A stretch of 23,130 nt of DNA from an uncultured Erysipelotrichaceae bacterium (lineage in GTDB: Bacteria > Bacillota_I > Bacilli_A > Erysipelotrichales > Erysipelotrichaceae): the NCBI GenBank assembly GCA_964401865.1, contig CAYNZZ010000017.1, positions 1 through 23,130 on the forward strand, read 5' to 3'. The position numbers and the translations under genes were made by a program. Of the stretch, positions 1 to 5,290 are shown piece by piece (positions within the stretch are counted from its first letter, which is position 1; each line of letters opens with the position of its first letter). Below the pieces are notes generated by a model. It saw only the letters and a program-made list of their open reading frames with translations, was not told the origin of the DNA and ran no database searches.

Positions 1-680
1 ACACTATTGAATTATCAACAAGACCATTAGAAAACTACATTGGTGATTTAGAAGTTTGGGATAAAGCAGAAAAAGCCCTTGAAAATGCATGTCATAGTGC
101 AGGCAAAGACTGCAAGATCAATCCTGGTGATGGAGCTTTCTATGGTCCAAAACTAGATTTCCACATTCAAGATTCTTTAGGAAGAGTATGGCAATGTGGA
201 ACAATACAATTAGATATGAATTTGCCTGAAAGATTTGATATCAATTATGTTGATGCTGATGGTAATAAGAAACGTCCGTTAATGCTTCATCGTGTTATTT
301 ATGGTTCAATCGAAAGGTTTATGGGTATCTTGATTGAACATTATGGCGGAGCTTTCCCATTATGGCTCGCTCCTGAACAGGTTAAGATAATTCCTGTTCA
401 CCATGAATTACACTTGGATTATGCATTAAAAGTTAAAGAAAAATTAGAAAAATCAGGTTTTAGAGTTTCTGTTGACGATAGAAATGAAAAACTTGGATAT
501 CGTATCAGAGAAGCACAAATGCATAAGATTCCGGTTCAGATTGTTGTCGGCGATGGCGAAATTAATGATGAAACAGTTAATGTTCGTCGTTTCGCATCAA
601 AAGACAGTAAGATTATGAAACTTGATGAGATGGTTGATAGCTTAATTACTGAAAGAGAAGAAAAACTTTATGTTCGTTAG
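1..680 (+). CDS. thrS: threonine--tRNA ligase, C-terminal part (5' end lies outside the window)
   Basis: The frame is open from nt 3 (TIELSTRPLENYIGDLEVWDKAEKALE...GAFYGPKLDFHIQDSLGRVWQCGTIQLD) and continues into the tracked ORF 216-680. This matches the class II catalytic core and the C-terminal anticodon-binding domain (IPVQIVVGDGE...) typical of ThrRS. Stop is TAG at 678-680. Confidence 0.9.
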   Translation, partial: TIELSTRPLENYIGDLEVWDKAEKALENACHSAGKDCKINPGDGAFYGPKLDFHIQDSLGRVWQCGTIQLDMNLPERFDINYVDADGNKKRPLMLHRVIYGSIERFMGILIEHYGGAFPLWLAPEQVKIIPVHHELHLDYALKVKEKLEKSGFRVSVDDRNEKLGYRIREAQMHKIPVQIVVGDGEINDETVNVRRFASKDSKIMKLDEMVDSLITEREEKLYVR

Positions 681-1599
681 AAAGTTTTTCATCCTTGCGA
701 TTAGTTTATTGCTTCTTACTTCATGCAAACCTGTTGCTAATAAAGATAGTCTTAATAACGATATCGATTATGAGTTTAGTATTATCTCTCCGAGTGGTGC
801 TCCAGCTTTATCTTTATTGGATTTTATTGATGATGAAACAATAACTTACGAGATTGTTGATGGATCTGATATATTGGCAGCTGAATTTTCTTCGGGAGAA
901 AAAGATTTTATTATCGCACCTATCAACCTAGGTATGAATTTAATTAATAAAGGTTCAGATTATACTTTAGTTTCAGTTTTGACATGGGGCAATTTATATT
1001 TAGTTAGCACTAATGAACATTTAAATTCCGATAAAGTTGCTGCATTTGGTGAAGCAGCAGTTCCTGGCAAAATTATTAGTACAATTGAAAGTTATTTTGA
1101 AGGTGTGCAAATTGATTATTTTGCATCGGTGCAGGAAGTTTCATCAGCGCTTTTGTCTGGTCAGTATGACACAGCCATCTTAGCTGAACCATTTCTCACT
1201 ATGACTAAAAATCAATGGTCCAGCACTCATGGAGAGGAATTAAACGAAATAGCTAATATTCAGGAAATCTATTCAGGTATTAAAGGACAATCATCTTATC
1301 CTCAAGCTGCCTTATTTGTAAAAACATCACTTTTGAGTTCTGATTTAGAAGCGGTAATGTCTTTTGCGAATAGAATGGATTCTTCTATTGATAAGTATAA
1401 CAATAATGAATCGGCGCTTAATGAACGTATTGATGAGATCGATTTAAGTTTATTGGGTTTCGCTAATAAGGATTTAATCAAACAATCATATAGTCGTATC
1501 GCTTTAGACTTTGTCTATGCCTATGATTGTGTTGATAGCGTTAATACTTTCTTGGATTTGTTTGAAATCGAATTAAAATCATCTACATATATTAAATAA
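670..1599 (+). CDS. ABC transporter substrate-binding lipoprotein (NMT1/SsuA/TauA-like, COG0715-type)
   Basis: The N-terminus MFVRKFFILAISLLLLTSC has a signal peptide and an L-T-S-C lipobox. The body (SPSGAPAL...APINLGMNLINKG...TWGNLYLVS) resembles NitT/TauT-family binding proteins. The start overlaps the thrS stop by 11 nt, and a permease gene follows directly. Confidence 0.7.
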   Translation: MFVRKFFILAISLLLLTSCKPVANKDSLNNDIDYEFSIISPSGAPALSLLDFIDDETITYEIVDGSDILAAEFSSGEKDFIIAPINLGMNLINKGSDYTLVSVLTWGNLYLVSTNEHLNSDKVAAFGEAAVPGKIISTIESYFEGVQIDYFASVQEVSSALLSGQYDTAILAEPFLTMTKNQWSSTHGEELNEIANIQEIYSGIKGQSSYPQAALFVKTSLLSSDLEAVMSFANRMDSSIDKYNNNESALNERIDEIDLSLLGFANKDLIKQSYSRIALDFVYAYDCVDSVNTFLDLFEIELKSSTYIK

Positions 1600-1600
1600 A

Positions 1601-2326
1601 ATGAAAAGAATGCATATTATATCAATCTTGACCATGGTATTAATTTACATTGTTGCATCTAACCTTGTAAATGTGTCTTTTATCTTGCCAAGAATAAGTG
1701 AAATTATGCATTCTTTTTTTGTGATTGTTTTGGATGTCAAATTTTTTTCTGCTGTATTTGCTACTATATATAGGTTTTTAATTGGAGTATCAATCAGCTT
1801 TATCTTGGCATTAGTGTTATCGGTTTTTTCGTTTTATTCGAAGAAATTTAGAGAATTTATGGAACCGATATATATATTTTTAAAAACTATACCAAATATA
1901 ACTTATATTATTGTTTCTATATTATGGTTAGGGAGAAATGGCAGTGTAATACTTGTCAGTTCACTTGTAATATTCCCGATAATGTATAATAGCTTTTTGA
2001 CAGCTTTTGAAAATATTGATCATGAGTTAATGCAAATCACAAGATTATATGACTTTAGTTTTTTATATAAATTAAGGGTTGTCTATCTTCCTTTGATTAA
2101 TAAATCGATGCTATTGGCTTTAAGTAATAGTTTATCTCTTGCGTTTAAAGTATCGGTAATGGCTGAAATATTAGGACAAGTAAGTGTTGGGATAGGTAAA
2201 CAGATATACTTTGCGAAGATAAACTATTTAATGGGTGATGTCTTTGCATGGACAATTATTATAATTATCATATCGGCCATTATTGATTTGATATTTAAAA
2301 TCATAATTAAAAAGATGAGTTATTAA
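1601..2326 (+). CDS. ABC transporter permease (BPD_transp_1, NitT/TauT family-like)
   Basis: 241 aa with about 6 predicted hydrophobic helices and an EAA-loop-like segment (ELMQITRLYDFSFLYKLRVVYLPL). The ATG lies 1 nt after the binding-protein stop. Confidence 0.8.
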   Translation: MKRMHIISILTMVLIYIVASNLVNVSFILPRISEIMHSFFVIVLDVKFFSAVFATIYRFLIGVSISFILALVLSVFSFYSKKFREFMEPIYIFLKTIPNITYIIVSILWLGRNGSVILVSSLVIFPIMYNSFLTAFENIDHELMQITRLYDFSFLYKLRVVYLPLINKSMLLALSNSLSLAFKVSVMAEILGQVSVGIGKQIYFAKINYLMGDVFAWTIIIIIISAIIDLIFKIIIKKMSY

Positions 2327-2338
2327 AGGGAGATTGAT

Positions 2339-2809
2339 ATGCGAAGAATTGATAGAGAAATAAAAAATCCCGCAACAATTAAGGATATTATCAATCGTTG
2401 CCAATACTGCCGAATTGGTTTTAACGATGAAGGTGAAGTTTATATTGTACCTTTAAGCTTTGGCTACGAATTGATCGAAGACAACTATATATTTTATTTT
2501 CATGGTGCTAAAGAAGGTCGGAAAGCTACTTTGATTAGAAAAAGTCCGACTGTCGGCTTTGAATTAGATACTAATTACGCTCTTAATGAATCGACAATCG
2601 CTTGTGGTTTTTCTACAAGCTTTCAAAGCATTATAGGAACGGGCATTATAAGTGAAGTGGTTGATAATGATGAAAAGTTAAAGGGTCTTTCAATTATTAT
2701 GAAACACTATACAGATAAATATAATTGGGAGTACAATAAAAAATTATTTGATGAAGTTATGATTTTTAAACTTCGAGTCTTAAAAATGGACTGTAAAGAA
2801 CATAAATAG
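2339..2809 (+). CDS. pyridoxamine 5'-phosphate oxidase family / Nim-like flavin-binding protein
   Basis: MRRIDREI...CRIGFNDEGEVYIVPLSFGYE...YFHGAKEGRKATLIRKSPTVGFE fits the Pyridox_ox_2/NimA-like split-barrel pattern. SD AAAGGGAG at 2326-2333. Confidence 0.75.
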   Translation: MRRIDREIKNPATIKDIINRCQYCRIGFNDEGEVYIVPLSFGYELIEDNYIFYFHGAKEGRKATLIRKSPTVGFELDTNYALNESTIACGFSTSFQSIIGTGIISEVVDNDEKLKGLSIIMKHYTDKYNWEYNKKLFDEVMIFKLRVLKMDCKEHK

Positions 2810-2824
2810 TTATTCTAGTTTAAA

Positions 2825-2848
2825 AAATATCGGTTTTTACCGATATTT
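2825..2848. terminator. Rho-independent hairpin after the Nim/PNPOx gene; probable ancestral bidirectional terminator shared with proS
   Basis: AAATATCGGT (2825-2834), TTTT loop, ACCGATATTT (2839-2848) form a 10-bp stem. The T-run at the 3' end of the stem on + corresponds to a T-run 3' of the stem on -. Confidence 0.6.
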
Positions 2849-2850
2849 TA
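2843..2850. repeat. Left copy of the 8-bp direct repeat ATATTTTA (candidate target-site duplication)
   Basis: It directly abuts the left terminal inverted repeat. An identical octamer at 3582-3589 abuts the right one. Confidence 0.6.
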
Positions 2851-2865
2851 TAAGGTATTACGAAT
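2851..2865 (+). repeat. Left terminal inverted repeat TAAGGTATTACGAAT
   Basis: 15/15 match to the reverse complement of 3567-3581. Confidence 0.8.
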
Positions 2866-3052
2866 TCGGGGATGGGCACTTTCTACCGATAAATAAAGGG
2901 CTTTCACCAGTTTTGAGGTCTTGAAATTCCTAAAAAGCACGGCAAAATATAATTTCTGGTGTAATGCTTGAAGAGCATCAATTCCAACAGACAATAGAGC
3001 CAAAACAAGAATAACTTCAGTGTGTTTGACTTCTATTTTTCCTTTTGCCACG

Positions 3053-3077
3053 AAAAAAGCAGGGTCCGAAACCCTGC
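3053..3077 (-). terminator. Rho-independent terminator of the small membrane-protein gene
   Basis: GCAGGGT (3059-3065) pairs with ACCCTGC (3071-3077) around a 5-nt loop. On the - strand the hairpin is followed by TTTTTT (complement of A-run 3053-3058), 26 nt downstream of the stop at 3103. Confidence 0.75.
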
Positions 3078-3102
3078 TTCTATTCGACTTATTGGACTTG
3101 GC

Positions 3103-3327
3103 TTACTTCTTTTTTACAAAGAACAAGGGAATTACACCAAATATAATTGCAACGACAAGAGATATCATCGTTTTGAAAAACACCATATGGGTGATACTCT
3201 TAAAGAATATTTCTATCGGTTCTGCTTCTAACTTAATTCTCATGCCAGGGATTGCAAAGCAAATAATCAAATAAGTTGCAATAAAGGCAATCAAAAACAA
3301 CACTATGGATACAGTTTTCTTTTTCAT
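3103..3327 (-). CDS. small two-TM membrane protein (74 aa), function unknown; cargo of the TIR element
   Basis: MKKKTVSIVLFLIAFIATYLIICFAIPG...MISLVVAIIFGVIPLFFVKKK has two hydrophobic helices with lysine-rich ends. SD AAGGAA lies about 10 nt upstream of the ATG at 3327. The tracked ORF starts 7 codons earlier at 3348 with no SD. It has its own terminator. Confidence 0.6.
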   Translation of the reverse strand: MKKKTVSIVLFLIAFIATYLIICFAIPGMRIKLEAEPIEIFFKSITHMVFFKTMISLVVAIIFGVIPLFFVKKK

Positions 3328-3369
3328 ATAAACACATTCCTTTATCAAATATAAGTTTGTCTACTACTT

Positions 3370-3398
3370 AGTATATTCGTAGTGTAGGGGAAAATCAA
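3370..3398 (-). promoter_or_regulatory. Candidate sigma-A promoter for the small membrane-protein gene
   Basis: On the - strand, TTGATT (3398-3393), a 17-nt spacer, then TATACT (3375-3370), about 40 nt upstream of the ATG. Confidence 0.45.
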
Positions 3399-3464
3399 TT
3401 CTCCTGTCATCAATTTTTGCCATATCTGAAGCCCTCTATATACTACTTTATGATACTTACACCC

Positions 3465-3493
3465 AAAATAGCATTTTGCCGTCCTTATGACAA
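3465..3493 (-). promoter_or_regulatory. Second, upstream candidate promoter (extended -10) inside the right subterminal repeat
   Basis: On the - strand, TTGTCA (3493-3488), a 17-nt spacer ending in TGC, then TATTTT (3470-3465). This gives a TGn extended -10. Confidence 0.35.
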
Positions 3494-3535
3494 AATTTTA
3501 CCTTATTTTTAAACTTTAGTCCTTAGAAAGTAGGC

Positions 3536-3565
3536 ATAAATAAAGGGGATTCTCAAAATCCCCCA
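3536..3565 (-). terminator. Rho-independent terminator now serving proS, located inside the element
   Basis: The - strand reads GGGGATT-TTGAG-AATCCCC followed by TTTATTTAT, about 30 nt downstream of the proS stop. Confidence 0.7.
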
Positions 3566-3566
3566 G

Positions 3567-3581
3567 ATTCGTAATACCTTA
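3567..3581 (-). repeat. Right terminal inverted repeat (ATTCGTAATACCTTA on +)
   Basis: Reverse complement equals 2851-2865 exactly. Confidence 0.8.
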
Positions 3582-3589
3582 ATATTTTA
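3582..3589. repeat. Right copy of the 8-bp direct repeat ATATTTTA (candidate target-site duplication)
   Basis: Identical to 2843-2850. It lies directly outside the right TIR, 6 nt from the proS stop codon. Confidence 0.6.
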
Positions 3590-3595
3590 TATGAT

Positions 3596-5290
3596 TTATT
3601 TACTTATTATTGATTGAACTACGCTTATGATATCTTCGATTTTAACTTCTTGAACTTCTTCTTTGCTTCTAAGCTTTAATTCAACATATCCATCATTTAC
3701 TTTTTTACCAACAGTAATTCTTAATGGGATACCAATTAATTCTGAATCATTGAATTTTACACCAGGTCTTTCATCTCTATTGTCTAGCAATACATCAATC
3801 CCTTGTGCTGTTAATTGGTTATATAATTCATTAGCAACTTCAACTTGCCTTTCATCCTTAGTAATAGCGATAATGATTTCAACTGGGTATGGAGCGATAT
3901 TTATAGGCCATATGATACCTTTATCATCGTGATTTTGTTCAACGATGGCTGCCATACACCTGCCTATTCCTATGCCGTAAGAACCCATCCAAACTAAGTT
4001 TGTCTTATTATCTTTATCTAAGTATGTTAAATCAAGGGCTTCAGAATACTTTGTTCCCAGTTTGAATGTATTACCGATTTCAATACCTTTTGTGAAACTT
4101 ATTGGTTTTCCGCAGATTGGACAAACATCTCCGTTGCTAGCTTGTCTAATATCGCCAATCATATGTGGTTCAAAGTCAGCTCTAGAAACGTTGATATAAT
4201 GGTAATCAGTTTTGTTGGCGCCGACAATATAATACTGCATTTTGCTTACTTCATCATCAAGAATGATAGGGCATTTAATATCAATTGGTCCAGCGAATCC
4301 CACTTTGGCATGAGTGACTTCTTCAACAGTTTCATTATCAGCTAAAATAACTTCGCTGACTTGCAAGAATTTTTGAAGTTTTACCTCCGATACTTCTCTA
4401 TCGCCTCTAACCATTACTGCGTAAGGTTTGTTGTCACATAGATATATCAGCGTTTTAACGAATTGTTCTTTTGGCTCATTTAAGAATGCGCATACTTCTT
4501 CGATAGTTCCGGCATTTGGTGTATGTACCATTTCTTTTTCTTTGTAAATTAATGGTGTAGGACGATCAGGATTAATACATTCACATACTTCGATATTTGA
4601 AGTAAAACCACAATGATCACAATATACTACCGTATCTTCGCCGATTGGTGTAATGGCTTGGAACTCTTCGGATAAAAGCCCGCCCATAACACCGGTATCA
4701 GCTTTCACTATACGATAGTCAATACCCATTTCGTCAAATGATTTCTTATATACATCGACCATCTTTTGATACGAAATATCTAGAGCTTGTTTATCGACAT
4801 CGAAACTATAAGCATCTTTCATAACGAATTCTTTTACTCTGATCAATCCAAAACGTGCTCTTGGTTCATCGCGATATTTTGTTTGGAATTGATATAAGTT
4901 AAATGGCATATTCTTGTATGAACGAATCATTGATTTTCCAGCTAGTACAAATAATTCTTCGTGAGTTGGTCCCAATACCATATCTTTATTAGTGCGATCT
5001 TTTAAACGGAAAATACTTGGACCGAAGTTTTTGATTCTTCCAGATTTTTCATAATATTCTTGGGCTATCAGAGCGGGCATTTTAATTTCTTGACAGCCAT
5101 AACTATTCATATGTTTACGTATAATTGACTCAATTTTTTCTTGAACCTTTAATCCTAAAGGCAACATCATATATATTCCGGCGCTAGTCTTTTTAATGTA
5201 ACCGGCTTTTACGAGCAGATTGCCACTCACTGAATCTTCATCTTTAGCATCTTCTCTTAATGTATAAAAATAAGCATCTTTTAATTTCAT
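3596..5290 (-). CDS. proS: proline--tRNA ligase (bacterial type with INS editing domain)
   Basis: 564 aa. MKLKDAYFYTLREDAKDEDSVSGNLLVKAGYIKK..., class II motifs (FRLKDR, YQFQTKYRDEPRARFGLIRVKEF, GSYGIGIGR) and a C-terminal anticodon-binding domain. SD GGAAGGAAA upstream. Confidence 0.95.
   Translation of the reverse strand: MKLKDAYFYTLREDAKDEDSVSGNLLVKAGYIKKTSAGIYMMLPLGLKVQEKIESIIRKHMNSYGCQEIKMPALIAQEYYEKSGRIKNFGPSIFRLKDRTNKDMVLGPTHEELFVLAGKSMIRSYKNMPFNLYQFQTKYRDEPRARFGLIRVKEFVMKDAYSFDVDKQALDISYQKMVDVYKKSFDEMGIDYRIVKADTGVMGGLLSEEFQAITPIGEDTVVYCDHCGFTSNIEVCECINPDRPTPLIYKEKEMVHTPNAGTIEEVCAFLNEPKEQFVKTLIYLCDNKPYAVMVRGDREVSEVKLQKFLQVSEVILADNETVEEVTHAKVGFAGPIDIKCPIILDDEVSKMQYYIVGANKTDYHYINVSRADFEPHMIGDIRQASNGDVCPICGKPISFTKGIEIGNTFKLGTKYSEALDLTYLDKDNKTNLVWMGSYGIGIGRCMAAIVEQNHDDKGIIWPINIAPYPVEIIIAITKDERQVEVANELYNQLTAQGIDVLLDNRDERPGVKFNDSELIGIPLRITVGKKVNDGYVELKLRSKEEVQEVKIEDIISVVQSIISK

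Follow-up and report, generated by a model that had tools for sequence, protein, structure and literature searches.

The DNA examined here is a stretch of 23,130 nucleotides from an uncultured Erysipelotrichaceae bacterium (contig CAYNZZ010000017.1; the whole stretch is hereafter called the window), in which a 731-bp block at 2851-3581, between a Nim-like gene (2339-2809) and proS, has the makings of a mobile insertion cassette that carries one small gene, sm74. An earlier note on this DNA had recognized terminal inverted repeats with identical octamers outside them, and a direct reading of the sequence, a repeat finder and a gapped alignment of the ends all uphold its coordinates and the imperfect inward extension of the match that it described. 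The perfect 15-nt repeat is TAAGGTATTACGAAT at 2851-2865, with its exact reverse complement at 3567-3581, and ATATTTTA lies directly outside both ends in direct orientation, as the left (2843-2850) and right (3582-3589) copies of a target-site duplication. In the repeat finder the arms reach 21 nt at 90% complementarity, and in the gapped alignment (TAAGGTATTACGAAT-TCGGGGAT against TAAGGTATTACGAATCTGGGGGAT) 21 of 23-24 nt match over the extended ends. The left terminal inverted repeat is thus annotated as TAAGGTATTACGAATTCGGGGAT at 2851-2873 on the plus strand (15 nt perfect, about 23 nt imperfect) and the right one, with reverse complement TAAGGTATTACGAATCTGGGGGAT, at 3558-3581 on the minus strand. 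The 15-mer TAAGGTATTACGAAT has no further match within the window when up to three mismatches are allowed.

The weight of these repeats was gauged in 1000 dinucleotide-preserving shuffles of the window, scored for a perfect 15-nt inverted repeat at a spacing of 50-3000 bp. Such a repeat appeared in 313 of the 1000 shuffles, and for this reason the 15-nt inverted repeat alone is worthless as evidence. When a direct repeat of at least 4 bp had to abut the inverted repeat, the number fell to 4/1000, and raising the minimum to 6 or to 8 bp brought it to 0/1000. The earlier note had allowed that the 15-mer alone could have arisen by chance and had found its placement persuasive; both halves of that judgement hold. 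A second inverted segment is collinear with the first: 2924-2964 (plus strand), which contains ACGGCAAAAT, pairs with 3457-3497 (minus strand) over 41 nt at 73% complementarity, starting 73 and 84 nt inward of the two termini. Its alignment score of 19 compares with 9.8 ± 1.4 in shuffled arms, and 0/1000 shuffles reach 19. With this segment, which stands in the same order in both arms, the ends are structured over about 115-125 nt, and by analogy they resemble transposon ends with subterminal binding sites.

On the minus strand, from the proS side, the block reads as the right inverted repeat, a hairpin, a promoter-like site, a ribosome-binding site with a 74-codon open reading frame (ORF), a terminator, an arm of about 200 bp of non-coding DNA and the left inverted repeat. 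The hairpin (3544-3564, minus strand; GGGGGATTTTGAGAATCCCC then TTTATTTAT; −12.9 kcal/mol) is terminator-like, sits just inside the right end and now lies directly downstream of proS. The promoter-like site (3370-3398, minus strand) consists of TTGATT and TATACT separated by 17 nt and was found by a consensus scan only. The ORF is sm74 (3103-3327, minus strand), which encodes a two-helix transmembrane protein of 74 amino acids in which a central loop motif is invariant, and belongs to a family of at least 137 protein clusters; the complete small gene that had been claimed for the block is therefore real. Downstream of it, GCAGGGTTTCGGACCCTGC followed by a T-run forms an intrinsic terminator (3057-3080, minus strand; −20.9 kcal/mol, z −4.5). 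With its promoter-like site, ribosome-binding site and terminator included, sm74 looks like a self-contained cargo, the promoter and terminator being assigned their roles from sequence.

The claim that the block holds no transposase ORF was sound as well. No ORF in it exceeds 84 amino acids, none of its ORFs has a Pfam match, and the two IS1595-like transposases of this study, used as tblastn queries, detected no remnant in 2851-3581 and nothing significant in the 23-kb window. A 67-codon ORF at 2848-3051 on the minus strand was considered as a second gene and rejected: it has no ribosome-binding site and runs out through the inverted repeat into the flank. Relative to the contig L125, described below, five changes in this ORF are non-synonymous and one is synonymous, and for this reason we do not regard it as a constrained gene. 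Searches for Rfam families (gathering thresholds over the whole window, E-value mode over 2750-3700) gave only sub-threshold noise, and no tRNA or tmRNA genes were found in the window.

The block is present in each of seven readable contigs that encode an identical Nim protein (L001-L007), and over 871 bp these contigs do not differ at any position. Contigs with an empty site were reached through variants in the 90%-identity protein clusters of ProS and Nim, and the contigs of two ProS variants were fetched. Two contigs of the same species, L104 (SRR33454328) and L105 (SRR29026054), are without exactly the 731-bp block, which is thus missing as a unit. By blastn, they are 98.5% identical to the window on the Nim side and 99.2-99.3% identical on the proS side; the alignment ends at window position 2852 and restarts at 3582, and the two aligned blocks overlap by 10 nt. 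Their junction, ...AAAAAATATCGGTTTTTACCGATATTTTATATGATTTATTTACTTATT... (also given as ...TTTTTACCGATATTTTATATGATTTATTT...), is the left flank, one ATATTTTA(TA) and the right flank. Nim and proS lie 47 bp apart in both contigs, around a single bidirectional terminator hairpin (2822-2849 in the window; −14.8 kcal/mol on the plus strand, −12.6 kcal/mol on the minus strand, z about −5). This is the compact junction around one hairpin that the earlier note had derived by removing the element, with the single octamer that it had proposed to look for in relatives. The hairpin is unchanged in the empty-site strains and so predates the block; its 3′ half and the T-tract were the insertion target.

More distant relatives are also without the block. 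In L021, whose ProS is 85% identical, a permease gene, one bidirectional hairpin and proS follow one another with neither Nim nor block, and L065, a more distant relative, is similar, with a permease gene, one hairpin and proS. Other ORFs occupy the Nim/block position in L022, and in most other Erysipelotrichaceae relatives thrS and proS converge directly. From these sequence comparisons, the polarity favours insertion over loss. A search of JGI metagenomes with the predicted empty-site 22-mer TACCGATATTTTATATGATTTA gave one match (L103 2314-2335), a chance match in unrelated coding DNA.

The neighbouring Nim-like gene has a history of its own. It is a lineage-specific addition between an ABC permease gene and proS, where L022 has other ORFs. 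The best homologues of the Nim-like gene outside the species, in metagenome-assembled genomes of Lachnospiraceae, are only about 62% identical. In the element-free contigs L104 and L105 it has a shared 1-bp deletion that shifts the frame. The gap between permease and proS is a small hotspot of variation.

Other copies of the window-type ends were sought among gene calls, with the 67-amino-acid translation of the spurious left-arm ORF as the probe. This returned two proteins, P0263 (97% identical, 71 amino acids) and P0264 (91% identical, 84 amino acids). In L125, the contig of P0264, positions 322-590 match window 3117-2850 at 94.4%, a match that spans the sm74 terminator, the entire left arm (2851-3082 in the window, 94-97% conserved in L125) and the inverted repeat (L125 575-589). 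The homology ends at ...CCCCGAATTCGTAATACCTTA (the end is also written ...CGTAATACCTTA), beyond which L125 continues with TTTGGTCTTCGC: the terminus is the same and the flank is different. Upstream, in place of sm74, L125 has a different ORF as cargo, a lipoprotein-like fragment of at least 99 amino acids. The second protein, P0263, reads ...RIRNTL and then LYLH past the terminus; because LYLH could not be encoded by the flank in the window or by that in L125, this protein marks a third site. The element boundary is thus fixed to the base twice and independently, by the empty site and by the second copy in L125. About three copies of the window-type end were detected across all collections searched.

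These copies also settle how the duplication is to be read. A reading of 10 bp (ATATTTTATA) is possible for the direct repeat, as the initial TA of the left inverted repeat is also found in the two bases after the right octamer. The left end finishes ...CCTTA in all three known copies (window, L125 and P0263), so that the TA is part of the element, the duplication is 8 bp and not 10, and the terminus is TAAGG/CCTTA.

The cargo has a second setting in an insertion sequence that is widespread in other gut bacteria and that we call IS-A, a 1961-bp unit with a 438-amino-acid transposase, sm74 as a downstream passenger and inverted repeats of 25-26 nt, (A)GTCTCTGTCCGAGATRAGTATTGGT. The transposase passes the NCBIfam model transpos_IS1595 (99 bits against a cut-off of 75). 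IS-A was found in three contexts in L110 (1907-3867), L109 and L112, and in L102 (2428-4284), where it interrupts an AbiEii toxin gene. Insertions of the IS-A type are flanked by an 8-bp AT-rich duplication at five of the six distinct sites examined (TTATTATA in L102, TATTTTTA in L107, TTTTTTAA in L109, TCTGTTTA in L110 and AAAATAAT in L008), the site in L112 having 7 bp only. Internal-deletion derivatives without the transposase, which keep sm74 and both inverted repeats, measure 887 bp (L107) and 538 bp (L008, L101, L106, L113 and L115); this series shows how such cassettes arise.

The block in the window was considered as a further deletion derivative of IS-A and rejected as such. Only 3083-3363 (minus strand) aligns to IS-A and its derivatives, at 95-98%, and this core comprises the gene, which differs from the IS-A passenger at 4 of 225 nt (98% DNA identity), a 36-nt leader and 20 nt of 3′ sequence. 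The window arms on either side (left, 232 bp; right, at 3364-3581, 218 bp) and the inverted repeats are unalignable to IS-A. The window therefore combines window-type ends with a cargo shared with IS-A, and L125 combines a window-type arm with another cargo; from this it follows that the element is a mosaic whose parts have separate histories. The simplest reading of the alignments is that the mosaic arose by recombination within or next to sm74. No signal of site-specific recombination was found. A stretch after the sm74 stop (3083-3117, ...TCCAATWWGTYGAA...) is common to the window and IS-A (L110 3725-3745) and, more loosely, to L125 (322-360); the TCCAATWWGTYGAA stretch sits where the cargo and backbone homologies change over.

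L125 contains a transposase-like gene close to its window-type end. This gene (637-2247, minus strand) encodes a 536-amino-acid, very divergent IS1595-like protein with a C-terminal extension of about 270 amino acids, which scores 71.4 bits against the NCBIfam IS1595 cut-off of 75, has a Zn domain at 33 bits against 28, and shares 22-27% identity with annotated IS1595 transposases. Given its odd position outside the terminus, we regard the gene as a lead to a partner enzyme and not as a demonstration of one. Degenerate inverted-repeat-like strings at L125 598-612 (minus strand) and 2311-2326 (plus strand) face away from the gene. L125 2349-2395 is weakly similar to the right arm of the window element, a marginal similarity reached in 5-10 of 1000 shuffles.

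Mobile insertion cassettes are defined by two inverted repeats, the lack of a transposase, a target-site duplication and one or more passenger genes, and MIC231 of Bacillus cereus is mobilized in trans by its cognate transposase (PMC3913671). The block has the two inverted repeats, no transposase, a duplication with a single-copy empty site, and a passenger gene. It also shows presence/absence polymorphism, has a second end with the same terminus elsewhere, and shares its cargo with an IS1595-family element. It is a further example of this known kind, and it is not of the IS-A lineage. We put the probability at about 85% that 2851-3581 is a non-autonomous transposable cassette with sm74 as its cargo, for which an IS1595-family DDE enzyme is the most likely class of partner. 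The element entered as an inverted-repeat-bounded unit with an 8-bp duplication, on the AT-rich 3′ side of a terminator hairpin. We infer mobilization in trans and the identity of the enzyme. Three features make an IS1595-type enzyme our best guess for the partner, at roughly even odds: the length of the duplication together with its AT-rich target, a cargo also found on an IS1595-family element that itself gives rise to such cassettes, and the gene in L125.

The insertion most likely proceeded as follows. The terminal inverted repeats and the subterminal segments are the likely transposase-binding ends, and a DDE transposase supplied in trans would bind both. It would then join the two ends to staggered cuts made 8 bp apart in AT-rich DNA, on the 3′ flank of the bidirectional hairpin that served both Nim and proS as a terminator, and gap repair would duplicate ATATTTTA. 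The hairpin at 2822-2849 would still terminate Nim, and the hairpin inside the right end would replace it for proS. On this reckoning, the insertion was probably close to neutral for the host. The earlier note had read the footprint as cut-and-paste; transposition with terminal inverted repeats and a duplication stands, but the data do not distinguish cut-and-paste from a copy-out/paste-in route.

Several results weigh against this interpretation, or against the IS1595 assignment within it. The seven filled contigs are identical and so represent a single insertion event. The 21-nt end pattern TAAGGTATTACGAATYYGGGG had 0 exact matches in 185,579 species-representative genomes and 0 in IMG/VR viral contigs, and the whole block had no blastn match in plasmid and phage collections. 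Further copies, which the earlier note had proposed to look for, do exist in that L125 and P0263 carry the end at other flanks; only the left end has been seen a second time, the right arm is without a known relative, and the longer copy that was also proposed, an element with window-type ends enclosing a transposase, was not found in the collections searched. The IS1595-like gene of L125 is not enclosed by the window-type terminus but stops 47 bp beyond it and converges on the cargo, and neither a matching second end nor a duplication turned up around this gene. IS-A itself is an unlikely partner, because the window ends are unrelated to its ends GTCTCTGTCCGAGATRAGTATTGGT. Lastly, a duplication of 8 bp is also typical of the families IS1, IS6, IS256, ISL3 and IS66 (ISfinder family tables).

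This last point bears on the alternative that deserves most thought, namely that the element is of the same kind but is served by a partner from another family with 8-bp duplications (IS6, IS256, ISL3, IS66 or IS1), sm74 having been gained by recombination with an IS1595-borne copy. The ends that cannot be aligned to those of IS-A, and the mosaic in which cargo and ends have separate histories, are what such an origin would leave behind. However, the sole transposase-like gene seen beside a window-type end resembles those of IS1595, the AT-rich target is of the sort that IS-A and ISApl4 use, and the cargo is common to an IS1595-family element, so that we consider a partner from another family possible but rather unlikely. 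A different account accepts the block but reverses its history: it would be ancestral in the species, and slippage or recombination at the direct repeats of 10 bp (ATATTTTATA) would have removed it from L104 and L105. A precise deletion of this type gives the same single-copy junction, and L104 and L105, with the 1-bp Nim deletion in common, form a separate lineage; however, the direct repeats abut the inverted repeats exactly, as an insertion duplication would, the outgroups are without the block, and the homology in L125 is bounded by the same terminus. We therefore hold such a loss to be very improbable, and even if it had occurred, the block would have entered earlier by transposition.

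The most radical alternative dispenses with transposition altogether and takes the block for a gene fragment brought in by illegitimate or homologous recombination, with its repeats as coincidence. It can appeal to the frequency of a lone 15-nt inverted repeat in shuffled sequence and to the fact that most homologous loci share the gene core only. Against it, none of the 1000 shuffles combined an inverted repeat with a directly adjoining direct repeat of at least 6 bp, none reached the score of the subterminal segment, and two independent comparisons place the insertion boundary on the exact base at which the inverted repeat ends. Taken together, these results effectively refute it.

As a mobile insertion cassette, the window element invites comparison with several known systems. 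It shares with MIC231 and with the qnrD and qnrS2 'mic' elements the inverted-repeat brackets, the lack of a transposase, the duplication and the carriage of passenger genes unrelated to transposition, as well as a modular cargo, seen here in the window (sm74) and L125 (another ORF). The duplication of MIC231, at 10-12 bp, is longer than that of the window element. In addition, the ends of MIC231 derive from IS231 (IS4 family), whereas those of the window element match no element found, its duplication is 8 bp and its host is an uncultured member of the Erysipelotrichaceae.

Published IS1595-family elements, including ISApl4, have 14-bp inverted repeats and A/T-rich 8-bp direct repeats (PMC12561309), and the family includes members with passenger genes (Siguier et al. 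2009, as cited in PMC12561309). The likeness to IS-A, as a passenger-carrying member of this family, lies in the same cargo, 8-bp AT-rich duplications, short inverted repeats and an AT-rich intergenic target, and extends to the transposase-less, sm74-carrying derivatives of 538 and 887 bp; the window element differs in that it lacks a transposase and has arms and inverted repeats that do not align. Judged as a derivative of an IS1595-family element, it has the A/T-rich 8-bp duplication, its ends do not match those of IS-A, the sole relative compared, and it contains no DDE_Tnp_IS1595 remnant.

The earlier note's term for the element was MITE-like, after the miniature inverted-repeat transposable elements (MITEs). 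MITEs are typically non-coding, about 100-400 bp long and present in many copies. The window element resembles them in its lack of autonomy, its inverted-repeat boundaries, its flanking duplication and its intergenic position beside a terminator, but at 731 bp, with a complete conserved gene and one copy in the 23-kb window, it is better called a mobile insertion cassette; of the original description, the non-autonomous part stands. With the filled site, the empty site, the repeats and the duplication all in hand, it is a clean case of a transposase-less, gene-carrying cassette in a gut member of the Erysipelotrichaceae. There is also a lesson for annotation: in the window strain, the proS terminator appears from the sequence to be supplied by a mobile element, and the 74-amino-acid gene is accessory and stands outside the conserved locus.

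The cargo protein belongs to a family whose members are mostly 73-75 amino acids long. Residues Y19, C23, I26, P27, I31, K32, L33, A35, M48 and K52 are invariant, and a loop with the pattern IPGMRIKLEAEP.E.F..SI.HM is nearly so (window 3103-3327 and homologues P0001-P0120 and P0131). In an AlphaFold model with a mean predicted local distance difference test score of 83, two transmembrane helices (3-24 and 49-72) are separated by a loop and then a short helix (37-46). The protein has no Pfam, NCBIfam or PADLOC family, and its model has no significant fold match in the PDB. Its 90% cluster includes WP_118428373.1, annotated in Pseudoflavonifractor capillosus, and the exact sequence occurs in 1960 index blocks of the assembly collection. 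The vehicles on which sm74 was found are IS-A, the window-type cassette, a MobC/relaxase mobilizable element and prophage-like regions with two copies. A tiny and highly conserved protein with two transmembrane helices is being moved between bacterial classes by at least two unrelated backbones, and such spread usually signals a selectable function; any benefit of this cargo is something that we infer.

It is conceivable, though we give it little credence, that cassettes with window-type ends form a family not yet described, whose members exchange cargo and may depend on a long (536-amino-acid), very divergent IS1595-like transposase, its gene lying beyond the inverted repeats as it does in L125. 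In such a family, sm74 would be a hitch-hiker kept by selection and might confer, for example, immunity, exclusion or resistance. A selected hitch-hiker would explain both the abundance of the sequence in 1960 blocks and its passage between two classes, Clostridia (Pseudoflavonifractor) and Erysipelotrichia, with a mobilizable element, prophage-like regions and at least two transposon backbones of unrelated origin as vehicles.

Among viral contigs, searches for loci related to sm74 and to both transposases returned nothing useful. Two further settings of the family were seen. In L117-L124, the homologue P0007 (79% identical) lies in the MobC/relaxase mobilizable element beside an IS630-like (DDE_3) element, an arrangement conserved across 24 contigs. 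In L108 (3501-3725 and 4271-4495), L111 and L114, sm74 occurs as a pair of paralogues separated by 0.4-0.7 kb. The region around them also encodes a serine recombinase and has SocA-like and MazE-like genes, and it looks like a prophage or an integrative element.

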